Below, piece after piece: positions 21,529-50,033 of a stretch of 64,000 nt of DNA. The position numbers and the translations under genes were made by a program. The stretch's first letter is position 1; each line of letters starts with the position of its first letter. Below the pieces are notes generated by a model, which saw only the letters and a list, made by a program, of their open reading frames with translations, was not told where the DNA came from and made no database searches. Origin of the DNA: an uncultured Phycisphaerales bacterium (GTDB taxonomy: Bacteria > Planctomycetota > Phycisphaerae > Tepidisphaerales > Tepidisphaeraceae); NCBI GenBank assembly GCA_963844715.1, contig CAWJPJ010000007.1:928001-992000 (forward strand), given 5' to 3'.

Positions 21529-21912
21529 ATGGCTGAGGATTGGAAGAAGGAATACGACCAACGTCAATATCGGTTGATGGCTGACCAATTGCAGCGGTTT
21601 GAAGAAGGTCAACTCGGTCTTGTCTCTCTGATCGGCAGCCTAAAGTCTTTGCTTTCAGTTCTTGAAGCAACAGATGAAGCGTGGAAAGACGACTTCCGAA
21701 GTGAGTGGGGAACTTTGGAGGTGGCATATGCCATGATGCTTGACCAGAAGGGAGACGGCCTCGTGCCAAACGAGCAGGCGGCGCTTAATGATCTCGCCAA
21801 CCGTGCAGATATCCGTCAAGCAGTCCGGAACATGCAGCGGCTTGTGCAGGAGCGCATTGACACGACGGCTGGCGCGGAAACTGACGCCGGGGACGGTGCG
21901 ATTGCCGGCTGA
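21529..21912 (+). CDS. Putative cytoplasmic immunity protein, copy 1
   Basis: 127 aa acidic, helical-looking ORF 14 nt after the toxin stop; paralogous to the next ORF. Confidence 0.7.
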   Translation: MAEDWKKEYDQRQYRLMADQLQRFEEGQLGLVSLIGSLKSLLSVLEATDEAWKDDFRSEWGTLEVAYAMMLDQKGDGLVPNEQAALNDLANRADIRQAVRNMQRLVQERIDTTAGAETDAGDGAIAG

Positions 21913-21934
21913 AAGCGACTAAAGGTGGGTCGTC

Positions 21935-22318
21935 ATGGCTGAGGATTGGAAGGCGGAATACGATCAACGCCAGTATCGGTTGATGGCCGACCAGTTGCAG
22001 GGATATGAAGAAGGCAAGTTAAACCTCGCCTCTTTGGTCAGCAGGTTGGAAGCGTTGCTCTCGGCTCTAGAGGCACCCGATAAAGCGTGGAAAAATGACT
22101 TCTGGAGCAAGTGGGGAACCTTGGAGACGGTGTACGCGGTAGCGCTTGACCGCAACGAACAAGGTCTCGCGCCGGATGCCCAAGCGACGATCAATGATCC
22201 CTCTCACCGGGCGCTCATCAACGAGGCAGTCCAGAATCTCCGGCGGCTCGTACAGGACCGCATCGACACGACGGCCGGCGCGGAAACGGACGCCGAGGAT
22301 GGCGCGACCGCCGGCTGA
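21935..22318 (+). CDS. Putative immunity protein, copy 2 (tandem paralogue)
   Basis: Same length and collinear (MAEDWKxEYDQRQYRLMADQLQ...WGTLE...RIDTTAGAETDA). Confidence 0.7.
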   Translation: MAEDWKAEYDQRQYRLMADQLQGYEEGKLNLASLVSRLEALLSALEAPDKAWKNDFWSKWGTLETVYAVALDRNEQGLAPDAQATINDPSHRALINEAVQNLRRLVQDRIDTTAGAETDAEDGATAG

Positions 22319-22680
22319 AAGCCACCCATTGCAAACCCGGTAGGTTGACGGATCGCGCTAACTTCCCGCCCTGTCGGGAGTTGCCGGCGTCGTTGCCGCC
22401 GCGCAAGGTGTAAACACCTTGCCTCATCAGGTCACAGGTTGCGCCAGATCATTGTGGGACAGAGACTTACAAAAAGCGCACCTTGGTTCCTTTTACCTTG
22501 CCGTCTGATGTTTGTATGACCTTCTGCCCCCAGGTCAGCGCTGCAAGTGCCGGAATTCGCTGCAAATACCGACAAAGCTCATACATCCCTTTTATCTTGT
22601 ATTCCATGAGCAAACTTCTCCTGGGTTAGATTCTCCGGGAGTGTCGAGACCCGTTGGTCCCTTTTTGCGGGAGGTTTGCC

Positions 22681-23828
22681 ATGGTATTCGTTGGATTGGA
22701 TACGCATCATGAAACGTCGACCTGTTGCGTGCTGGATGATCGAGGCCAGCGACTGGAGGGTCGGACGATCAAGGGTTCTTGGACGGAAACGGCACGGTAT
22801 CTTCAGGCGCTGCAACAGCGTGATGGTCGGCCGATGGCAGTCTGCTACGAGGCATCGTGCGGGTACGGAGCGTTGCACGATCACCTGCGGACATTCTGCC
22901 AGCAGGTGGTGGTGGCGCATCCTGGCCGGGTGCGATTGATCAGCCGATCCAAGCGGAAGAATGATCGGGTTGACGCCCAGAAGCTGGCCAAGCTGTTGTA
23001 TCTGGACGAGGTTCCGCAGGTGCATGTTCCATCGGCCGAGGTTCGTTCGTGGCGGGAGCTGATCGAGCTGCGTCGTCGCCAGGTGCAGACGCGCACTCGG
23101 GTGCAGAGCCGGATCCGCGCGTTGCTGCGGACGTACAACGTGTGCATTCCCAAGCAGGGAAAGGAACCCAATCGCCCGTCTCGGAGGTGAAGTCTGCCGT
23201 CGTTGCGAGTGAAGCGTGCGAGCCGTTTAAGATTCTGTGGACGGATCGGGGCCACCGCTGGCTCAAGTTGCTGCAATGGCCAACGCCGGCGGTGGCGTTG
23301 CGGTGCGAATTGTTGGTCGATGAGTTGGAGCAGACGGAACGCGCCATCAAGCGGGTGACGGCGGAGTTGGACAAGATGGCGGCCGGAAACGCCGGCGTGC
23401 AATTGCTGTGCACGATCCCCGGCGTGGGATGCCGGACCGCCGAGGCGGTGGTGGCGTATCTGGACGATCCAGATCGTTTTGCCCGATCCAACCGGGTGGG
23501 ATCGTACGCGGGTCTGGTGCCGTGCCAGGACAGTTCCGGGGGCACCGATCGACTGGGCCATATCACCAAGGAGGGCCCGGCGACGATGCGCTGGCTGCTG
23601 GTGCAATCGGCCTGGCAGGTGGTGCGGCGCGAGCCGTTCATGCGGGCGTACTTTCATCGCGTGGCCGGCGGGCAGAAGGAAAATCACAAGAAGGCGCTGA
23701 TCGCCACGGCGCATAAGCTGCTGCGTTGCATGCATTCGATGCTGCGAACGGGCGAGGTGTGGAATCCGCCGAAGGACGATGCCGCGAACGAGGCGAAGTC
23801 CGCCGCGACGGAAGAGAAGAGCGGCTAA
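22681..23828 (+). CDS. IS110-family DEDD recombinase/transposase (1-nt frameshift near 23160-23185)
   Basis: GGGAGG RBS; motifs VGLDTH, YEAS and KNDRVDA (DEDD); C-terminal LCTIPGVG...YAGLVPCQDSSG...HITKEG...KKALIATAHKLLR. Confidence 0.92.
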
Positions 23829-23849
23829 AGGAAAAAGATGGACCCTTGT

Positions 23850-24035
23850 AGGCATCGGTAAGCGCCGATGATCGAGATGGGCACGGGATTGATAACCGGA
23901 CTCCGCGGCAAGGCATGGGACCATACCCAGGATCCCGATACCTTGAATGGAGCCGGTTCGGATCACGAAGAGTGGCACGCCGTCGATAAGTGTTTTGACG
24001 GATGATGCCGGATAGATGCGTGGAACATCCCGAGC
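23850..24035 (+). ncRNA. Predicted IS110 bridge RNA (5' hairpin, target-binding loop, donor-binding loop), copy 1
   Basis: Stems AACCGG-A-CTCC/GGAG-CCGGTT and CACG/CGTG close two internal loops. These contain GGCAAGGCA and TACCTTG (target match) and GAGTGGCA and ATAGATG (donor match). Folded by eye; ends approximate. Confidence 0.7.
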
Positions 24036-24577
24036 CTGAATCTCGTCCCCGTCTTGACACGGTTTGCTCATAGATGCCGTCTGATGTTTGTATGACCTTC
24101 TGCCCCCAGGTCAGCGCTGCAAGTGCCGGAATTCGCTGCAAATACCGACAAAGCTCATACATCCCTTTTATCTTGTATTCCATGAGCAAACTTCTCCTGG
24201 GTTAGATTCTCCGGGAGTGTCGAGACCCGTTGGTCCCTTTTTGCGGGAGGTTTGCCATGGTATTCGTTGGATTGGATACGCATCATGAAACGTCGACCTG
24301 TTGCGTGCTGGATGATCGAGGCCAGCGACTGGAGGGTCGGACGATCAAGGGTTCTTGGACGGAAACGGCACGGTATCTTCAGGCGCTGCAACAGCGTGAT
24401 GGTCGGCCGATGGCAGTCTGCTACGAGGCATCGTGCGGGTACGGAGCGTTGCACGATGTCGCGGGTGCGCCAAAACCGGCCATCAATGGGCGCTCGAAAA
24501 CCGGCCAGTGTTGTGACGCTTCGTATACCTCATCCGTTCAGTTCCATGCAACTTTCTGTTGAGTTATTGGCCCCGCA

Positions 24578-25455
24578 TCAGGACGCCTGATCGGCAGGCA
24601 CCCCAGCACCAGAAGATACTGGCTTTCTGCCACGGTGTCTTCCGGAGGGGAGGCCCTTCATCGTCGGCGGTACTCCGCCGTCCTTTTGAATTTGCCTTTG
24701 TGGAAGGCTTCGCCTCCACGGCCTCCCCGTGCCGCCGTGGCGCAGGCGATAGCTTTTGCCGGTGATGTTGATGATGGTGGCGTGCTGCAGGAAGCGGTCG
24801 AGGATCGCCGTGGCGGCCGGCACGTCGCCGATCAGTTTGGCCCAGTCTTCCAGCGGCCGGTTGCTGGTCATCATCGTCGAGCGGTTCTCATGGCGGCGCA
24901 TGATGATCTCCAGCAGGCATTCGCCGGAGCGACGCGGAAGTTGCTTCATGCCCATGTCGTCGATGATGAGCAGGTCGGGCTTGAGATAACGATTCAGCGT
25001 TTTGTCCTGCTGGCCGAGTTCCTCGTCGCCGAGGAAGTCGCGGGCCAGGTCGAAGATGGAGCGGTACAGCACCAGGAATCCGGCTTTGATCGCCTGATGC
25101 CCGATGGCCTGGACCAGGAACGTTTTGCCGACGCCGGGTGGGCCCAGCAGCAAGCACATCGGCTTTCTCGCGGATGAACTGACAACCGGCCAGGTCGTGG
25201 ATCTGCTTGCGCTTGATCGACGGGTTGAAGGAGAAGTCGAACTCGTCGAGGTTTTTGACTTCGCCGAACAGGCGGCCTTGACGCGGCGGCTACCAATCGG
25301 CTGGACCGCACGTTCAGTTCATCCTGAAGAATCAGTTCCAGAAACTCGGCGTGATCGAGCCGATTGCCGGCTGCCTCGCTCAGGCGGACTTCAAGGCTCT
25401 GGGCCAGGCCCGAAAGCCGAAGCTGTTTGAGCGTCTGCAACAATGAAGGTCTCAT
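24578..25455 (-). CDS. istB: IS21 helper ATPase IstB (frameshifted)
   Basis: LKQLRLSG; Walker A GPPGVGKT; Walker B LLIIDDMG; TSNRP...ILDRFLQH...GKSYR. Start overlaps the istA stop. Confidence 0.92.
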
Positions 25456-26994
25456 GGGATGGACTCCTGTGAAGGTGGTTGTTGGGTAATGGCCTGTCGC
25501 ACGAACTGCCCGTAATCGCCCAGGTCACGGATGATCGGATGTTCCTGGATGAACTCGAAGTTCTGCTGAATGGCGGGCGGATTCTGTTGTTCGATGAGTT
25601 GCCGCAATGAACGCAGGTGATACGCCCCATGGCCCTGGGCGACTTGGCAGGCCTGCTCGATGACGCGGCGGGAATGCTTGTTCGTCAGGGACAACAGCCC
25701 CATGAGCACGCGCACGCCTTCGATGCCGCGATTCTGGAGCATCGACTGCGCCCACTGCGTGGCGTGCGGGCCGATGGATTCGACCCGGCGCAGCAGCCAG
25801 GCCGTTCCGCGTTCGATGCCGCTGATCTTCTCCGGCAGGATGTGGGCATCCAGCGTGGAGAAGGTTCCCGGCGGACGCTGCACATGCACGGCGATCGGCC
25901 GCATCTTCTGATCCAGCAGTCGGACCAGTCCGGCCATCCCAGCGCGCCCAGAGCTGCTGGCCCAAAAACTCCGGCGGCACCGAGTAGTACGCGCCCTTGA
26001 TCTCCACGTGCCCATCCCGATGCACGCTCCGCAGCGCTTCTGGAAACAGATCGAACCGGGCCGCCGGCAACGGCAACAGCGCCGGCTTCTCCGCCTGCTC
26101 GAAGACTTCCTTCACCTGCCGGCGCGTCGTGCCATGGATGCGCGTGTCGGCGACGGTCGCTTCCCAGGTCTGCAGATGCTGGTTCTGCTCGGCCAGGAAG
26201 TGAAGGTCCGTCCCTTGAGGGCGTTGCCCTTCACATAGCCGATGCCCCGTTCGATCTTCCCCTTGTGCCGCGGCGTGTACGGCTTGGTCGGCAGGATGGC
26301 GATGCCGTAATGCTCGGCAAACGAGCGGACCTTGGGACACAGCTCCGGGTCGAACCAGTCCGCCCGCCTCACCGCCGCCCGGAGATTGTCGATCACCAGC
26401 GTCCTCGGCACGCCGCCGAAGTGCGCGAAGGCATTCTCCAGGCAACGCAGAAAGTCATCGGTGGTCTGACGATGCACCGCCTCGGCGTACCCCTTGCGGC
26501 TGTGGGACAGCACGATGCGGAAGACCCAGGTGCTCTTCCGTTTGCCATCCGGCACCGACGATGGGCGCGCCCCGGCCAAAGTCCACCTGCGCCTCGGCCC
26601 CCGGCTCGCATTCCATCCGCCGGAACGGCGCCGGCGCCGCCGCAGGTCAACTTCTTGACCAGCCGGCGCACGCTGTAATAGCTGCCGGCATAACCGTGGT
26701 CGGAGCAGAGGTCCTGATAAATCCGCTGGGCGGTCAGCCCCATGCTCCAGCTTCTGAAGAATCACTTCACGCCAGGGCGCTGGCGGCGCGTGACCAACCC
26801 GGTGGGCGACGCCTCTCCGAGCCGAGGGGGGCGCGCTGGCCGGTTTTGAATCTTCCCTGCGCCGCCAGCCGAAGATGGCGTCCGACCGTCTCCCGGTGAA
26901 CGCCAAGTTGCCGGGCGATGTGCCGGTTGGACCAGCCATTGCGTGCAAGTGCCAGAATTGCTTGTACTTCCGCCATCTTGAGTTGATTCGCCAT
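25452..26994 (-). CDS. istA: IS21 transposase IstA (frameshifted)
   Basis: HTH GWSNRHIARQLGVHRETV; FAHFGGVPRTLVIDNLRA; PRHKGKIER; YSVP. Confidence 0.9.
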
Positions 26995-28089
26995 CGTACC
27001 GTCGTCTCCCGGCGAGAGCCGGAAGCCAACGGTAATGAACAAATCTCCTGTGCCTCAAAATGGCCGGTTTTGGCGCGCCCCTCAGCTGGCCGGTTTGTGC
27101 GCGCCCGCTGACAGCACGATCACCTGCGGACATTCTGCCAGCAGGTGGTGGTAGCGCATCCTGGCCGGGTGCGATTGATCAGCCGATCCAAGCGGAAGAA
27201 TGATCGGGTTGACGCCCAGAAGCTGGCCAAGCTGTTGTATCTGGACGAGGTTCCGCAGGTGCATGTTCCATCGGCCGAGGTTCGTTCGTGGCGGGAGCTG
27301 ATCGAGCTGCGTCGTCGCCAGGTGCAGACGCGCACTCGGGTGCAGAGTCGGATCCGCGCGTTGTTGCGGACGTACAACGTGTGCATTCCCAAGCGGGGAA
27401 GAAGATTACCGCTCGACCGTCCGGAGGTGAAGCCTGCCGTCGTGGCGAGTGAAGCGTACGAGCCGTTTAAGATTCTGTGGACGGATCGGGGCCATCGCTG
27501 GCTCAAGTTGCTGCAATGGCCAACGCCGGCGGTGGCGTTGCGGTGCGAATTGCTGGTGGAGGAACTGGAGCAGACGGAACGGGCCATCAAGCGGGTGACG
27601 GCGGAGTTGGACAAGATGGCGGCCGGAAACGCCGGCGTGCAATTGTTGTGCACGATCCCTGGGGTGGGCTGTCGGACCGCCGAGGCGGTGGTGGCATATC
27701 TGGACGATCCAGATCGTTTTGCCCGATCCAACCGGGTGGGATCGTACGCGGGCCTGGTGCCGTGCCAGGACAGTTCCGGGGGCACCGATCGACTGGGCCA
27801 TATCACCAAGGAGGGCCCGGCGACGATGCGCTGGCTGCTGGTGCAATCGGCCTGGCAGGTGGTGCGGCGCGAGCCGTTCATGCGGGCATACTTCAATCGC
27901 GTGGCCGGCGGGCAGAAGGAAAATCATAAGAAAGCTTTGATAGCCACGGCGCATAAGCTGCTGCGTTGCATGCATTCGATGCTGCGAACGGGCGAGGTGT
28001 GGAATCCGCTGAAGGACGATGCCGCGAACGAGGCGAAGTCCGCCGCGACGGAAGAGAAGAGCGGCTAAAGGAAAAAGATGGACCCTTGT

Positions 28090-28276
28090 AGGCGTCGGTA
28101 AGCGCCGATGATCGAGATGGGCACGGGATTGATAACCGGACTCCGCGGCAAGGCATGGGACCATACCCAGGATCCCGATACCTTGAATGGAGCCGGTTCG
28201 GATCACGAAGAGTGGCACGCCGTCGATGAAGTGTTTTGACGGATGATGCCGGATAGATGCGTGGAACATCCCGAGC
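28090..28276 (+). ncRNA. Predicted IS110 bridge RNA, copy 2
   Basis: Same sequence as 23850-24035 except one stem A>G change and a 1-nt loop insertion. Confidence 0.68.
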
Positions 28277-28319
28277 CTGAATCTCGTCCCCGTCTTGACA
28301 CGGTTTGCTCATAGATGCC

Positions 28320-28911
28320 CTGCGTTGAGAACAGAATTTCCCCGATTGTCACCGATTCTTTTTTACCCATGTCGATGTGCGACGAAGGGTCTGATTCATC
28401 CGCGAATGAAAAACTGATGCCGACTTTGCGGTACACGCCTAGGACTTGATCGGTATGGATTGGGCCGAAGTAGCGGCTATCGAAGCTGCGTACGGCGGCG
28501 GAGCCGACGAGCAGTTCATCGGCGGCGAGTCTGCGCGGCTGACCAGTGCGGCAGCGGCCGACCAGCGGAATCGAAAGCGGCAATGGGACCTACACGAAAG
28601 CCGTTGACGCGCAGCTCGCCGTCCAGCGTCGAGACAAAGTCGCCGCCGGCGGCCAGCACGTGCTTAAGCAGGATCAGATTCGTCGGCTCACCCCGCAGAC
28701 GCGTATAGGAATAGGCGCTGGCGGGCAGCGCAAACGCGACAATACTGCCGCGCTGAATACGACCGCCATGGTAAAGATAGAAGCCAATTGGAACACTCGG
28801 CGTGCGGTTGTAAATCACCAGCGGCGGATGCGGCAGCGACGCGCTGGCAATCAGCGCAGCGATAACGCCTGCGATGACCCGCATACGGCGGAGGCCTCGA
28901 TCAATTCTCAT
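28320..28911 (-). CDS. traF: TraF-like conjugative S26 peptidase (frameshifted)
   Basis: IYNRTPSVPIGFY...LLKHVLAAGGDFV, then in another frame SFDSRYFGPI...VLGV; N-terminal TM helix. Confidence 0.8.
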
Positions 28912-29387
28912 GGGTTTGCTCCTGCAAGAATCGCAACAGGGAATCCCGATTCAGCCGCCTGGGCTCTTGGCCGGCGCAACGACTGGGCCGCAAGACGGTA
29001 ATAAATCAGCGGAACGCGGCATGGATCGATCCGCGACTGCTGAATCTCGCCAATCAGTTGGTCGGCTCGGTCGACAACGCCGCGGTCTTTGCCGATGCAG
29101 CGGCAATTCAGGAACGCGTGCACGTTCACGGCTGGGTCGATGCACGGCAGCCGAAAGCCGCTCTGCCCTCTCTCCCGGGCCTGGGCGACAGCAAAGGCGG
29201 CGAACTGCCGCCGCGGCGAGACCCGCGCCCACCACAACACAGCAAACGCCTCGTCGGCGCGGAACCAATAATGCGTCAAACCATCATCAATGCGCCGCAC
29301 CTGAACCGGGCTTCCGAAGCGCAGGCGAACGCTGAAGCGGTCCTTAACCTGACAAGCGGTCAGCCGTGTCCAATCTGAGTGGGTCAT
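28908..29387 (-). CDS. DUF2840-like ICE protein
   Basis: LRFGSP...FAVLWW...LPCIDPAVNV...IGEIQQSRIDPCRVPLIYYR; lies directly upstream of traF, as in Tn4371-type ICEs. Confidence 0.7.
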   Translation of the reverse strand: MTHSDWTRLTACQVKDRFSVRLRFGSPVQVRRIDDGLTHYWFRADEAFAVLWWARVSPRRQFAAFAVAQARERGQSGFRLPCIDPAVNVHAFLNCRCIGKDRGVVDRADQLIGEIQQSRIDPCRVPLIYYRLAAQSLRRPRAQAAESGFPVAILAGANP

Positions 29388-30163
29388 GACGGGTTTCGCA
29401 CGGATGGGTTGAGACTGGCGTGAGCGGGCTGGGTTGGATGCAGGTATGGCAGCAAAGCAGCGGCCTGCATGGGCAATCGCGGCGGAAGACGCAGGTGGTT
29501 CTTGGCCGCGTGCGCCCGAGCCGGCCCCGTGTAAATCACCCGATGATCGTGCGAAGCATCTGCGTGCGTTGCCGCCGAAGACCTCTCCTCATGCCGGCGA
29601 TTGGCATGGGTGGCGAAAAGCACCTCGTCACACCAGGCTTGAATGCGCGCCGAGGTTTGGTCATTCAGCGCGGGCTCATACCTCTGGGTAAGCGATCCGC
29701 CATGCAGTGGGCTGGCGGGCCCACGGAGCTGCGCATGGCCCACCAAAACGATGTGCAAGCCGACACCACCGCGCAGTAGATCCAGCCGACGGAGCAACTT
29801 TTGCCAATGCGCCAGCGCCAAGGCCTGTCCGTCGGGAATCGCCGCAAGGTGCTCGGCATTGCGCCGCCGGCACAATTCGTCCCCAATCGATAGCTCCACG
29901 CTCTCCAGGGAGTCGAGGATGACCGTGGCATACTCGTGCAGCCCAACGTACAGGTCTTGCAGCGCCTGCATAACTTGATCGAAGCGGCGGCATACCGGAA
30001 ATCGAGTGCAAGCAATATGGTTGGTGCTCTCGTCAGTGGGAATGAGCACCGGCGCCCGCAGGCCCGCCGCCAAAGTCGAGGTGCCGATTCCGCGAATGCC
30101 ATAGAACAGAATCCGCCGCGGCCGCTTGACTGAACGAGTGTGGATTTGATCGAACAATTTCAT
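29384..30163 (-). CDS. AAA_24 / Sak4-like phage P-loop protein with degenerate Walker A
   Basis: RRILFYGIRGIGTSTLA; YATVILDSL; IVLVGHA; WCDEVLFA; AKNHLRLP; GGAGG RBS. Confidence 0.8.
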   Translation of the reverse strand: MKLFDQIHTRSVKRPRRILFYGIRGIGTSTLAAGLRAPVLIPTDESTNHIACTRFPVCRRFDQVMQALQDLYVGLHEYATVILDSLESVELSIGDELCRRRNAEHLAAIPDGQALALAHWQKLLRRLDLLRGGVGLHIVLVGHAQLRGPASPLHGGSLTQRYEPALNDQTSARIQAWCDEVLFATHANRRHEERSSAATHADASHDHRVIYTGPARAHAAKNHLRLPPRLPMQAAALLPYLHPTQPAHASLNPSVRNPS

Positions 30164-30361
30164 GTAGACCTCCTACCTGCATTGGTGAACGCCTCTTGTC
30201 CGTTACGACCGGACCAAAACCGCAGAGCATGGGCGAGGGCTGTGCGCGCTCGGTGGTGATGGAAGTGCGATTTGCGCGGACTGAAGGGATGAGGAGCAGG
30301 TTCTGTCTGAAGCGAGAATCCGCTCAGAATGTGCTTGACAATTTAGCCACGAGTTAGGTAA

Positions 30362-31549
30362 ATGTACGGTATCGCGTTCCTGCCCAGGACGGAGCTTGGG
30401 TTCATCGATACCGCCGTTTGCCGACCGAGCGCTGGGCGCGGCGCGATTGTTTGCACTACGGGAGGAATTGCCATGTTGGGCGCTGCTCTTTCTGAAGAAT
30501 TGCCTGCGGCCTCACTGTTTGGGCCTGCCCAAATGGCGTTGGAACGGGCGCAACGATTGTTTCGCCGCGCCCAACGCAGCGTGACCCATACCCTTCGCAT
30601 TGCCTCCCGTGGTGATTTGATGGGTCCAACTCCGCAAGCCAGGCAAATACGGTTTGTGCCGTGCACGTGGGGCATGCGACGAGACGACTACCGCTGGCGC
30701 GGCGATGCCAATCGCGATTTTGCCGCGCTGCGGAGCGGCGCTTCAACGATGGGCTGGGCGCTGGTTCATGCGCCGCTGCGCAACTGGAGCGAACTGTTGC
30801 CAGGGACGATGCCGGATGTCATGGGCACGCGATCGGACCTCTACCTGGCGGACTACTGGCTGCTGACGGTGCATTACTTGGTCTGGTCCAAGCGTCTGCC
30901 CTATCCAATCAAGGCCAATTGGCTGCACGGCGCGAGCATTCACGATCGGCCATTCAGCTTTACCAGCGAACTGCCAACCGATTTGACGGAAGCATCGCTG
31001 GATGCGCTGATTTTGTTTCGTGAGGCGGCAGTGACTCTGCCCCGAAACGGCGGGGATATCCCGATCGCGCCCGCTGAGCCGCCCGTGCTTCACGATGGCC
31101 ACTGGCATTTGATGACCCGCGAGGTTCCAACCAGCGCGGCGAATCAAACTCTACCCACTGCCGAATCCCTGGAGCCGCCGCCTCAAGCCGCCGTTTTGAA
31201 AGAGGCAATGGACGGAAGTGACGTTCTTCCCGAATTGAATGACCAGACCTTTACGGTCTGCTGTGGTGGCAAAAAGTATCGCTTTACCGCTCGGAACAAA
31301 CAGTTGTTCGCCCTCCTGGATCGAGTCCGCCGTCGCCCTGGTCATCGGGTCTCCTTCGACGATCTGCGCACCACCGGTGACGTTTGGGATGGCTCGCGGG
31401 TGGAAGACAGTTCCATCCGCGGTGCAGTCGCGCGGCTTCGCAAGCTGCTCAAGAACCATGGCATGAGCGCTCTGGCCGAGCGGGTCACGACCGGTACGTA
31501 TCAAGGCCGCGGCTATGTCGTTTTGCAGACGGCAGAAGGACACGACTGA
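30362..31549 (+). CDS. Hypothetical protein with C-terminal winged-helix DNA-binding domain
   Basis: C-terminus LFALLDRVRRRPGHRVSFDDL...VWDG...SIRGAVARLRKLLK is OmpR/wHTH-like. Confidence 0.65.
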   Translation: MYGIAFLPRTELGFIDTAVCRPSAGRGAIVCTTGGIAMLGAALSEELPAASLFGPAQMALERAQRLFRRAQRSVTHTLRIASRGDLMGPTPQARQIRFVPCTWGMRRDDYRWRGDANRDFAALRSGASTMGWALVHAPLRNWSELLPGTMPDVMGTRSDLYLADYWLLTVHYLVWSKRLPYPIKANWLHGASIHDRPFSFTSELPTDLTEASLDALILFREAAVTLPRNGGDIPIAPAEPPVLHDGHWHLMTREVPTSAANQTLPTAESLEPPPQAAVLKEAMDGSDVLPELNDQTFTVCCGGKKYRFTARNKQLFALLDRVRRRPGHRVSFDDLRTTGDVWDGSRVEDSSIRGAVARLRKLLKNHGMSALAERVTTGTYQGRGYVVLQTAEGHD

Positions 31550-31568
31550 TCAAGCTAAAGGAGAAGCC

Positions 31569-32289
31569 ATGTCAATATTCACGGATAAACGAGGGACCGC
31601 AGCGCCACGAACCGTCAAGATTCGCGGCGAGCAGTTTACGCGGCTTTGGCTTACGACCTCCATGTCCCAGGAGACCTTCGCGGCCCGCATCGGAATGAAG
31701 CGCTCCGGGGTATTCCGCCTGCTGCGGCCGGGCGTGCACGCCATGTTCAGCGATAACTTCGCCCGCGTCGCCCAAGCCCTGAACATGACGCCGCGGGAAT
31801 TGAAGGAGCGCATCGGGGTTGGAGAAGTCGTGGTGCGATCGTCCGATGCGGCGTGGCCCAATCTACCAATCGGGCATCAAGGGCCCGGCGCAGCCGCTGG
31901 TCGAGGTCACAAGGTTTCACGGGATCAGCGCGGGTAGCCGCGCCGAGCGCCTGGATGTGGAGCACGGGACGGTGAAGGTGCCCGAAGGGTGGGGGGATTT
32001 CTTCGTGCGCGTGGATGGGATTTCCATGCTTCCGGACTATCCGGATCAATCCGTCGCCGCCTTCGAAACGGTCGAGGGACAACAGTTTATTTATGGCAAG
32101 GACTATCTGATCTGGTTCACGGATGGGGAGTGCTATTTCAGCAGAGTGCATGAGAGTGACGAGGACCGCGATGTGCTGGTGCTTCGTAAAGTGAACCCGG
32201 ATCGCCGGCAGTTCCCGGATCGGTATGTCCATCGACGGGAGATTGAGCGCATCGCTCGCTGCGTTGGTGTAGCGATCGACAGGAGTTAG
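31569..32289 (+). CDS. XRE HTH + S24 peptidase (CI/LexA-like) repressor, frameshift near 31850
   Basis: AGGAG RBS; MSQETFAARIGMKRSGVFRL; GISAG cleavage-site-like segment; VRVDGISMLPDYPD. Confidence 0.8.
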
Positions 32290-32327
32290 ATCATCGAGTA
32301 GCAGAAATTCATGATGGGAGAAAGACG

Positions 32328-33023
32328 ATGTCGAGGCTCGTACGGTGGCTCGACCATCGCATGGAGGTGGTGGGAATCGAAAAACGGAAGGATCTGGCGG
32401 AATTGACCGGCATCCCGCTCGACGTTTTCCGCGAAATCCGGGACGTCGGCTCGCTGGAAATCCTCAGCAGAACCCAAAGGCGCCTGCTCGCCGCCGCCTT
32501 GCGCGTATCGCTTCGCAATCTGGAACAGCTCAGCGACCACCTGGTCGATTGGATTGAAGACGATCACGTGTGCGACGCTGAAGGTTGCGGCCGACCGCTT
32601 CCTGGCCGGAAGGGTGATCCGGCGTACCGGGTGCCGCGGGAATTACCGCCCGAAGACCGGGGCACGCCTCTGATCGGGAGAATTCGGCTCGGCGGCCAAG
32701 CCGAGTTAGACGAGGATTGGCATCAGGAATGGGGAAAACACATTCCCCACCGATTCGGCAATGGGCACAACGTCTTCGCCCTGGAAATAGAGTCCACGTG
32801 TACCTCGGTCGTGCTGCGAGTGATAGCGCCCTGGGAGTTTCGCGAAGGAAGAGCGGCGGTCTACTGCTGGAATGGGTGGGAGGCTCAGGCGTGGTTCGGT
32901 CGTGTGTGCCTACAACCCAAGGCATATGTCGTAACGGCGGACGGGCAGCGACATAACCTGGAACTACCGAATGTCATGCGCATTGGCAAAGTGGTGGGCC
33001 AGTGGCCCACCGGACCTGCCTGA
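32328..33023 (+). CDS. HTH protein with degenerate S24-like C-terminal domain
   Basis: RKDLAELTGIP; PLIGRIRLGG; VFALEI; MRIGKVVGQW. No SM catalytic motif. Confidence 0.55.
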   Translation: MSRLVRWLDHRMEVVGIEKRKDLAELTGIPLDVFREIRDVGSLEILSRTQRRLLAAALRVSLRNLEQLSDHLVDWIEDDHVCDAEGCGRPLPGRKGDPAYRVPRELPPEDRGTPLIGRIRLGGQAELDEDWHQEWGKHIPHRFGNGHNVFALEIESTCTSVVLRVIAPWEFREGRAAVYCWNGWEAQAWFGRVCLQPKAYVVTADGQRHNLELPNVMRIGKVVGQWPTGPA

Positions 33024-33098
33024 CGCCCCGCCCGACTCCGGGCGCAAAAACAAACCCGACGGGGGAACGGACGGTCCCCAGCCGGGTTGTGCGAGCCG

Positions 33099-33344
33099 CT
33101 ACTTGGACTCGCTCTTTTGTTGCAGTTCGTGGATCGCCTCGAACGTCTTATCCGCGACCTTTGCCAGCACCAGCAGATCGTCGCGGCCGAAACTGTCGGT
33201 GCTTTGCCACGTGCCTTCATCGCCGCGGTACAGCCGCTGAAACGTCACGTTGTACCGAGCGCCGCTCTCCGTTTCGTTCTGCCAAATGGCGGCTTTAACC
33301 GTGCCGATCCGGACTTCGCTAATGGGTTTCTGCTTCGTAGCCAT
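33099..33344 (-). CDS. Small mobile-element protein, probable ssDNA-binding
   Basis: KPISEVRIGTVKAAIWQN...YNVTFQRLYR...WQSTDSFGRDDLL; GAGGAG RBS. Confidence 0.65.
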   Translation of the reverse strand: MATKQKPISEVRIGTVKAAIWQNETESGARYNVTFQRLYRGDEGTWQSTDSFGRDDLLVLAKVADKTFEAIHELQQKSESK

Positions 33345-33876
33345 GTGAGACTCCTCTCTAAAAGGGTTTGATTGGTCCGTTCACCTCGGCGTGACGGACA
33401 ACAAACCCTTATGAGGAGTCGGAAGCCAGTCCGCAGCGGCAAGCGCCGGGAGCGAAAAACAGCGAGGAGAATGACAGGCGCGGCGTGCGACAACACGTGC
33501 AAAGCACCGGCGCAGCCGGCAAGCCTGGCGTGAGCATCGCGGTGGAGCGACCAGAGCGATAGCGCAGGGCCGGCGGTACATGGCAGCGCAGCAGAAATAC
33601 TTTCGCTGTCCGAGTCGGCATTCGGCCGGCGTCTTCAGAACGAGTAGCGGCCGGCGGTTTCATGTGCGGCGCGGCGAACCGGCAGGGCGGCGAAGTCGCC
33701 GTTGGCCAGCGCTATGATCTGCGGGTGCAGGCGGAGCGATGGTAGCGCCTGGCGTCCACGAACTGCCGCGCAAGAGCGTGCGAGCTTACAGCCGGACGGT
33801 TGGAGCGCCGTGAAAGGAAGCGAACATGACCGAGCGGACAGATTTTCTGGTCGTCCAACGGCCGGCTTAAGATCCA

Positions 33877-48244: not shown

Positions 48245-50033
48245 TCAGGCGCATGAAAAAATTGCGAGGAGTACGGCGTTCTGTAGAAGGGCGCAAATCG
48301 CCACGGTCAAGACTGCTTCTTGCACATCCAGCGAAAACAGATTCCAGAAAGCCACGGCATAAATCAAAAAAACAAGGTTAATGGCGATCACGTAAGACCG
48401 CATGTCATATCGCAGGGCCACGATGGCCACTGCCCCGGCGGCCATCGAAAACATGCAAATCCCAGCCATCTTCAGAATGGCGGTGCCGATCGAGCCGAAA
48501 TTCGCCGACAGGAGTTTGGAAGCGGCGAGTACACCAGCCAGCATCAGGGCAACGGCCAGTATCATCTGCACTAGAATGATGCCGACGGCGGCGGCCAAGT
48601 TGGAATGGCCGAGCGTGCTGTCGTAAGGGATTTCCGCCAACCGCAGCGCGAAACCACCGGCCAGCATGGCGATCGGAATCACCCGGTCGCGGAAAGGAGA
48701 ATACTCGGTCTCGGTATCATCAACCGCCTGCGGGCGGGCTCTGCGCCTGGATAAAGGCTGGCGCGGGAAGCGGCGGCGTTCGAATTTGCGGGTGTTTGCG
48801 CTGCTCCGCACGGCGATTGCTCAGACGTTTCTGCAACCTCATACGTTTGCAGGTCCAGCGCCTCAGGATCTTCCGTCGTCTGGGGTTTGGGCGGCGCGAT
48901 GAAGATTTTGCCGCACGGGCACTGCATGCTGCGGCCGGCAATTAGAGCATTTCCCAAATTAAACTAGCGGCTGGCGGTAACCGCAATGGCGGAAAAATCC
49001 CGCGGCATCTTCGGTCGTAACGGCGTCCATTGCCGCGAACACAGCCCGGACCAAGGTGTCGAACGTTCTGGGCTCCGCCGAGCGGATCAGTTGCTTCGCT
49101 TTGCTCCACATCATCTCGATCGGATTCAAATCCGGCGAGTAGGGTGGCAGCAACCACAGTTCGCAGCCGGCGGCTTCGATCAGGCGTCGCACTTCTGAAT
49201 GTTTGTGCGGCTGCAAATTGTCCATCACCACGATGTCCCCGCTTCGCAGGCTGGGCACGAGCGCTTCACGCACCCAGGCGACAAAAACATCGCTGTCCAT
49301 CGCCCCTTGAACAATCGCGCCGGCGGTCGCGCCGTCGAGCCGAACCGCGGCGATCATGGTGGTCGTGCTCCAGTGTCCGGCCGGGGTCTTGCACAACAAC
49401 CGTTCGCCGCGGCCGCACCGGCCACGCAATCGGGTGAAGTTCGTCTTGGCCCCGGATTCATCCACAAAAACAAGACGCTCGGGATCGACGTCCTTCAGCC
49501 GCCGACGCCACTGCGTCCGCGCGGCGGCGACGTCGGGCCGATCCTGCTCGGACGCGTGGAGAGACTTTTTTTAAAGGAGAGGCCCAGCTTCCTGAGCCAA
49601 CGGTCGACCGTCGACAGCGACACGTCCAGCGCCAACTTCTCTTTGATCTCGTTGAGCGTGGCATCCGGCCGGGCGGCCACGAACCGACTCAAACGAGTCT
49701 TCAACTCGCCGGTCAACTTCCCCTTGCGGCCACGAAGATGAAGCAGCGGTTCGGCCGTCCCCCGTTCACGTTCATCCTGTCGCACGCGGCGGACGGCCGA
49801 CTCGCATCGGCCGAAGATCGCGGAAATCTCCTTCGTGCCTTTGCCGGCACGATACGCCGACATGATCCATCGACGGGTCAGAGCGGTTTGCGATGCCATG
49901 GCAACCTCCTTGTTGAATCGGAGATTAGCAAAACAGCATCGATGGCGCTAGTTTAAAATGGGAAATGCTCTAGATCGGTGAGCGCGAATCTCGCGCCGCA
50001 GGCCGGGCAGGGGAAATTGACGGAGGCGGTCAT
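48245..50033 (-). pseudogene. Zn-ribbon multi-TM hypothetical protein disrupted by IS630
   Basis: Removing the IS and one TA restores MTASVNFPCPACGARFALTDLIAGRSMQCPCGK in frame; C-terminal TM helices lie in ORF 48245-48811. Confidence 0.8.
48945..49970 (-). mobile_element. IS630-family insertion sequence
   Basis: IRs GAGCATTTCCCAAATTAAACTAG / GAGCATTTCCCATTTTAAACTAG, TA duplication (48943-44, 49971-72), orfA HTH (49495-49899), orfB DDE (VFVDESG, VVMDNL, LPPYSPDLNPIE), A7G slippery site at 49565-49572. Confidence 0.95.

Follow-up and report, generated by a model that had tools for sequence, protein, structure and literature searches.

The window analyzed here, a stretch of 64,000 nucleotides, carries an insertion sequence (IS) of the IS110/IS1111 type whose left end could be placed at either of two TG dinucleotides, an outer one (22499-22500) and an inner one (22598-22599), separated by 97 bp. 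Where does this element begin, and to what do the 97 bp belong? A sequence-only reading of the locus had proposed two nested left ends, with about 97 bp of captured DNA travelling with the element. It offered two models: (i) the ancestral end is the inner one but the element now mobilizes from the outer site together with flank DNA, or (ii) a 99-bp tandem repeat is the real target and each repeat junction received an IS. We compared the locus with other copies of the element, with related genomes and with conjugative elements.

Organization of the locus

The window contains, in this order, a flank ending in TTTTACCT-TG (22499), 97 bp, TTTTATCT-TG (22598) and a first copy of the IS (copy 1, 22600-24074). 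On the 3′ side of copy 1 follow a TG, an identical 97-bp sequence (22501-22597 is repeated at 24077-24173), a TG (24174), a second copy of the IS (copy 2) split by an IS21-like element, a TG (28316) and DNA of an ICE. The motif TTTTAYCTTG occurs three times in the window, compared to 0.05 expected, and these occurrences lie at junctions. The features are as follows.

22400..22500, + strand: left half of a putative orphan oriT, ending in the outer target core TTTTACCT-TG (TG 22499-22500); homology to relaxase-linked oriTs
22501..22597, + strand: 97-bp spacer, read as host and not IS DNA, right half of the outer site plus left half of the inner site; IS-free in G036
22598..22599, + strand: TG core, taken as the true left junction; register common to L044, L011, L107, L108 and L116; contig of run X1
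22600..24074, + strand: IS1111-type element, copy 1, 1475 bp, apparent mosaic
22600..22607, + strand: left end TATTCCAT, resembling oriT positions +1 to +8; weak −10 box in the putative circle
22606..22615, + strand: left sub-terminal inverted repeat
22681..23828, + strand: DEDD transposase gene, frameshifted (−1) near 23165-23185 in copy 1
23829..24074, + strand: long non-coding right end, predicted to encode a bridge/seek RNA; fold stability above that of shuffles (z −2.84), no match in an Rfam search
23909..23916, + strand: candidate right-target guide slot CAAGGCAT, reads TG-CCTT on the target; covariation
23937..23945, + strand: candidate left-target guide slot GATACCTTG; weaker covariation
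23970..23977, + strand: GAGTGGCA, stem segment, not a guide
24012..24018, + strand: candidate left-donor guide ATAGATG, matching the right end (7/7 in 5/5 elements) and following its changes in L011 and L012
24054..24071, + strand: conserved −35 TTGACA and right sub-terminal inverted repeat
24075..24175, + strand: TG, identical 97-bp spacer (second occurrence), TG; copy 1 is joined on its right to the right half of the outer site
24176..28315, + strand: IS copy 2, interrupted at 24457-27113 by an IS21-like element (6-bp duplication)
28316..33485, + strand: leading region of an ICE (traF-like S26 peptidase, DUF2840, AAA_24), beginning exactly at the putative oriT core; 99.8% identity to C7:917485-922654; Pfam assignments from the copy at C7:917 kb

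The transposase has the domains PF01548 and PF02371 above cut-off (IS110 N-terminal and Transposase_20; DEDD), and its closest named relatives, at about 50% identity, come from Phycisphaerae. Its gene is followed by 246 non-coding nucleotides on the right, compared to 81 on the left. No copy in the assembly carries an intact gene. A programmed frameshift as a family trait is not supported, since copies 1 and 3 need unlike shifts (−1 just 3′ of an in-frame G GGA AAG heptamer in copy 1, a different one in the C6 copy) and copy 2 and the L044 copy are in frame. A short hypervariable stretch of the transposase (23156-23185) differs in length among all the copies (window, C6, L044 and runs X1, X2 and X5).

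Other features of the surroundings can be listed. The insert at 24457-27113, which we take to be IS21-like from its ORF content, has four relatives in the genome at 92%, and in run X5 an end similar to that of this element sits inside the 97-bp unit, at 22593. Two tandem genes of 127 aa, with 71% DNA identity to each other, lie 3′ of an Rhs gene (21529-22318); the first has no Pfam match, and they are probably immunity genes. A 1033-bp element at 48941-49973 has 13 more near-identical copies in the genome.

The element has a single left end

The assignment to the IS1111 type agrees with the domains, the sub-terminal inverted repeats and the long right non-coding end. The repeats are located as first described: GTTTGCTCAT lies at 24062-71, 3 nt before the TG at 24075-76, and its partner ATGAGCAAAC lies at 22606-15, 6 nt after the TG at 22598-99. 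They exceed chance, none of 2000 shuffles giving a perfect 10-mer inverted repeat less than 30 nt from both ends. The similarity between the inner and outer 14-mers (12/14) was also confirmed and likewise exceeds chance: of 20000 random 14-mers, 58 had an equally good match at a distance of 50-150 bp. A second proposed pairing, GTCTTGACAC with GTGTCGAGAC, does exist (9/10) but is borderline, being reached by 92 of 2000 shuffles and asymmetric in its spacing.

In a circle closed at the inner end, TTGACA would be 17 nt from TATTCC, as had been claimed. The −35 box TTGACA is conserved and TATTCC matches 3/6 of the −10 consensus, without its last T. A promoter scan of 23900-24300, which covers the real junction and not that of the circle, found nothing, and no circle joint occurs in contigs from four runs. 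The element is predicted to form a circle with a junction promoter and to express the RNA.

The register of the inner TG is kept in five other elements, L012 being offset by one base. The comparison of ends thus points to one left end, the inner TG at 22598-99, as the sequence-only reading had it for the ancestral state; an outer end carrying flank DNA does not supersede it, and the outer site is best described as an empty target.

The 97-bp unit is flanking DNA between two targets

All three copies found outside the tandem (C6:17641, L044 and the X1 contig) lack the 97 bp. The C6 copy begins G-TATTCC. L044, the single match in the metagenome scan, reads AAGCCTTTTATCT-TG-TATTCC at its left and AGA-TG-CTCTCC at its right. 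In the X1 contig, TG-TATTCC follows the outer flank immediately and without mismatch; this junction has 26 letters on its short side and comes from one of the four runs whose contigs were compared, out of 22 listed, runs with a small share being left aside. A contig of X5 that extends four letters into the 97 bp was not counted; other target halves also start with CCGTC. The boundary of these copies was the check proposed with the idea of an element moving from the outer site with the 97 bp; none of the three carries the 97 bp, and that idea therefore fails this check.

An empty allele was also looked for and was found in G036, a genome of another genus of the same family, where the flank, a single 97-bp unit and TTTTATCT-TG-CCATCC succeed one another without any IS (89% over 267 bp). 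Among 140 genomes of the family, it is the sole match across the whole unit. A contig of run X6 ends with the same letters as this IS-free allele and is possibly not independent of G036. TG-CCCTGCG belongs to a different site, the ICE oriT at C7:917477. The flank with the 97 bp had no match in plasmids, the right end of the IS had none in viral contigs, and no match to the native right flank of the inner site turned up in G000.

The distribution of the unit indicates that the 97 bp are host DNA between two target copies and not part of the element. The idea of a repeated target is nearer to the data than that of a mobile 97-bp segment, because the unit consists of host DNA and is bounded by targets. 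However, the allele of G036 has one unit between two target motifs and no tandem repeat. Concerning the properties of cargo-expanded IS110 elements, extra DNA accompanies the element at none of the three independent loci; a one-sided donor match at a repeat boundary does exist, at junction 24075, where ordinary insertion at the outer site predicts the same.

That the 97 bp are a hairpin target or a MITE was also considered and rejected: their folding does not surpass that of shuffled sequences (z −0.98 and −1.41), and G036 lacks their likeness to the right end of the IS (GCTCATACATCC). The copy at C6:17630-17645 in G000 has an off-pattern left junction, CAACTA-G-TATTCC, and a normal target half at its right junction; the left junction looks like an adjacent deletion or an off-target join.

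The target is apparently the core of an oriT

The target, TTTTAYCT-TG-CC, is present at both boundaries of the 97-bp unit. The right flank of copy 2 corresponds to C7:917485 onward (99.8% over 5172 bp), a stretch that begins exactly at TTTTATCT-TG-CC, between the gene of a traF-like S26 peptidase and that of a DUF3363/VirD2-like relaxase, itself followed by a coupling protein (Pfam at C7:917 kb: DUF3363/Relaxase, T4CP and S26). This 5172-bp leading region is duplicated 39 kb apart (28316-33485 and C7:917485-922654).

Homology to the window flank was detected at 29 loci, and the motif could be located in 24 of them: 12 carry a relaxase on the 5′ side, and the remaining 12, among them the loci nearest to the window, have none in the 1.5 kb compared and count as orphans. 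When loci were picked by relaxase alone, the strict motif was found in 16/34, 275-417 nt upstream of the matched segment and on the expected strand, compared to 1/68 control stretches. Most of the loci missing it belong to family f5, in which the canonical TATCCTG-C is at the same place in five of the eight inspected. With a widened pattern, the motif is present in 41 of 45 relaxase loci (11 of which had been picked by motif), 250-450 nt upstream of the query-matched relaxase segment, and missing from four. These loci are kin and not independent, so their counts are descriptive; L005 and L139, from the unpublished G004, are the same locus and enter each count once, and none of the conclusions rests on this locus. 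In this class of motif, the relaxase gene is 5′ of the presumed nick and the target motif is upstream of the VirD2-like relaxase. The two sites of the window have no adjacent relaxase, their neighbors being the Rhs gene and the two 127-aa genes, and are read as orphan oriT copies.

The oriT of Tn4371 was mapped to the traF-traI gap (PMC11448139, available text). The sites studied here resemble that of this ICE family in their position between traF and relaxase genes and in the block CTTTT..CTTGCCTTCC; the conserved CTTTTGTCTTGCCTTCC of that text, which presumably is its 20-bp conserved block, matches the relaxase-linked form found here at 15/17. They differ in that the sites of the window are orphans and deviate from the MOBP nick consensus, (C/T)ATCCTG(C/T) in the part of PMC3772185 available, by one mismatch (inner site) or two (outer site). 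The relatives of family f5 carry the exact consensus, TATCCTG-C, at the same position. Nicking is assumed here to occur after the G of the consensus, as in RP4. On this assumption, the TG core of the IS would be the last two bases before the nick. The target is thus apparently the core of an oriT of MOBP/Tn4371 type, a point that the sequence-only reading had missed.

Orphan oriT cores also occur in tandem, 99, 163, 129, 178 and 189 bp apart, in L002, L082, L095, L100, L101 and L104; in the genome of the window, they adjoin arrays of Rhs genes. They are possibly relaxase scars or mobilization sites for toxin-immunity modules. In L004 (G034, 1296-1900), two oriT cores about 300 bp apart have opposite orientations; a relative of the 97-bp unit (71%) lies before one of them, and an apparent IS110 transposase remnant is nearby.

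Guides of the predicted bridge RNA

The slots of the right end were compared with the flanks of five elements, L044 and L116 being omitted as near-duplicates and the more distant relatives in G074, G032, G109, G082, G153 and G154 because their right ends are broken or without anchors. The slot at 23909-16 matches its own right flank over 9, 9, 7 and 9 letters in four relatives and other flanks over 2-5. For the window element, it matches the outer, ICE and X2 flanks over four letters (TG-CC), the C6 flank over six and that of L044 over three (TG-C); its matrix value of 5 corresponds to a second register. The slot at 23937-45 matches its own left flank at 6-7/9 and others at up to 6, the row of L012 being misregistered by one base. 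This covariation argues, less strongly for the second slot, that 23909-16 and 23937-45 are the target guides of the bridge RNA. The complement of the top strand comes first, as in the IS1111 family according to the available text of PMC11187229. The sequence-only reading had proposed GAGTGGCA as donor guide; because it covaries neither with flanks nor with left ends, it is not considered as such. Inspection of the right end did not reveal a right-donor guide. A related IS1111 element with an AG core is present in G153, as 12 copies in a dispersed repeat (L113, L119, L123, L126 and L128-L135), which would lend themselves well to the mapping of guides.

Origin of the tandem

Between copies 1 and 2, there are 3 differences in the 558 positions that precede 23156 and 27 in the 671 that follow 23190 (p 5e-5). 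Such a shift is not found between copy 2 and the C6 copy (24/558 and 17/671; p 0.11). In its 3′ part, copy 1 shares 13 informative sites with L044, compared to 0 in its 5′ part. The distribution of these differences indicates that copy 1 is a mosaic, and the tandem was therefore probably generated by homologous recombination.

These data can be assembled as follows. The element, which is 1475 bp long and belongs to the IS1111 family, would have its only left end at the inner TG. Its right end would encode a bridge RNA recognizing (T)ACCT-TG-CCTT through its target loop, i.e. the oriT core, with the TG just before the inferred nick, and the circle of the element would insert into this motif. 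Two orphan motifs being 99 bp apart, an IS at the inner one would mimic a second, outer end; the outer site would be an empty target, and in another sample it does contain the IS. If a sister or incoming allele carried a diverged IS at its outer site, a single homologous crossover with the IS at the inner site would duplicate the 97 bp and make copy 1 a mosaic; it would produce the duplication, the mosaic and the 24075 junction together. We consider this explanation as a whole, with its single-ended element, oriT-core guide and recombined tandem, to be quite probable. Its last step taken separately, the formation of (97 bp + IS) × 2 by a single crossover, is favored with less assurance.

Another process may have shaped the flanks. 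Strand transfer by relaxases between nick sites could have built the orphan oriT arrays and the hybrid site of copy 2, made of the left half of the inner site and the right half of the ICE site; homologies that begin or end exactly at the core are in its favor. However, the joins that involve the right end of the IS lack the left half of an oriT and cannot be products of a relaxase, and identical hybrid flanks would result if two IS copies recombined. This possibility deserves consideration but is somewhat less likely than its negation; it is compatible with the crossover described above, with which it competes only over how the flanks arose. Copy 2, flanked by halves of two different sites, may owe this arrangement to IS-IS recombination or to relaxase-mediated joining.

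A softened form of the capture proposal, in which the right end pairs with the outer target by a half match and the IS and the 97 bp are excised or duplicated as a unit, in the way reported for expanding IS110 loci, would account for the identity of the two 97-bp units. The 24075 junction is moreover a left-donor-only boundary, a class described as enriched at repeat units in the available text of Hu et al. (bioRxiv 2026.08.14.744561), and half-match excision is reported for IS621 in that of 2026.08.31.748434. However, such a capture predicts identical copies, so that the 3′ part of copy 1, which is 4% divergent and L044-like, needs an additional conversion. Furthermore, the 97 bp accompany no copy elsewhere (0/3), and ordinary insertion at the outer site, which was observed, gives the same right junction. 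This scenario appears unlikely.

Still less credence can be given to the model of a repeated target as it was written, i.e. an IS-free tandem of two 99-bp units whose junctions each received an IS independently. The boundaries of the unit are indeed targets, and tandem oriT cores 99-189 bp apart exist in several loci. Nevertheless, the sole IS-free allele (G036) has one unit, the other arrays consist of different sequences and not of identical repeats, and gene conversion has to be invoked for the identity of the 5′ parts of copies 1 and 2. Finally, an assembly artefact joining alleles of a mixed population could be invoked, as the genome is incomplete (85%), the region rich in repeats and no spanning read was seen, but it is the least plausible source of the tandem, given that all junctions are precise and that the differences between the copies fall on real, shared-lineage sites, and the ends and the target would stand even if it were true.

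Resemblance of the left end to the nick context

The left junction reads TTTTATCTTG-TATTCCAT, and some oriTs of the same genome read CTTTATCTTG-CATTCCAT. When compared, post hoc, with a profile of positions +1 to +8 of 31 distinct oriTs, TATTCCAT ranks among the best 0.6% of 8-mers, inside the range of the native sites. The scores of seven relatives that have other left ends are low, at least 56% of 8-mers being better (0.79-1.0 at 8 letters). Position +1 is a C in 31/31 native sites, and TATTCCAT is unlike them at this position. Given the fit to the profile, insertion may rebuild the nick context: the left end would stand in for the downstream half that it displaces (CATTCCAT / CCTTCC), the origin would remain functional and the IS would lead the transferred strand. 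We put this forward tentatively and lean against it; the TAT of the left end may instead be kept as −10 box of the junction promoter. If the rebuilding were true, the recipient would receive the IS before any other DNA, a form of hitch-hiking that was not found in the literature searched.

Comparison with known systems and implications

The element shares with IS1111 members such as ISEc11, ISKpn4, ISPa11 and ISPst6, in the available parts of PMC11187229 and PMC11208160, a DEDD transposase, sub-terminal inverted repeats, a short left and a long right end, a −35 box at the right end and a guide RNA encoded there, the top-strand complement preceding the bottom-strand match. It differs from them in its target, the putative oriT core, in its distance from named relatives (about 50% identity), in lacking an identified right-donor guide and in having no intact gene copy in the assembly. 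According to titles in the reference lists of these two sources, the IS1111-attC group and IS4321/IS5075, which target the terminal repeats of Tn21, insert at sites of other mobile elements. Like them, the element studied here would insert site-specifically at a cis-acting site of another mobile element; the difference is that this site is a conjugative nick region and that the left end resembles the displaced sequence. Because IS1111 members aimed at sites of mobile elements are known, we regard it as a further member of this known kind. No IS110 or IS1111 element reported to target an oriT was found in full-text searches of the literature or in the supplement of PMC11187229 (files 1 and 5 excepted); subscription papers, ISfinder and bioRxiv supplements may hold one. 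As an IS1111-type target, the oriT thus seems absent from the print sources searched.

Expanded IS110 loci (2026.08.14.744561 and 2026.08.31.748434, available text) resemble the present one by their tandem IS110 modules and by a repeat boundary matching a donor half only. They differ from it in that the extra DNA of the present locus is not enclosed by the ends as cargo, and no case of it travelling with the element was found. The presence of ISPpu10 at amplification boundaries (2026.03.19.712850, available part) is a loose parallel; further background is found in the accessible parts of PMC13626964, PMC2789088 and PMC11208160.

The nested ends were a misreading, and this locus consequently reveals no new capture mechanism. 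Tandem target motifs can mimic the boundary of an expanded IS110 element, which calls for caution in surveys of cargo. This IS would be a naturally occurring bridge recombinase that seems to be directed to the oriT core common to many MOBP/Tn4371-like elements, and its insertion would either disable conjugative transfer or ride at its front.
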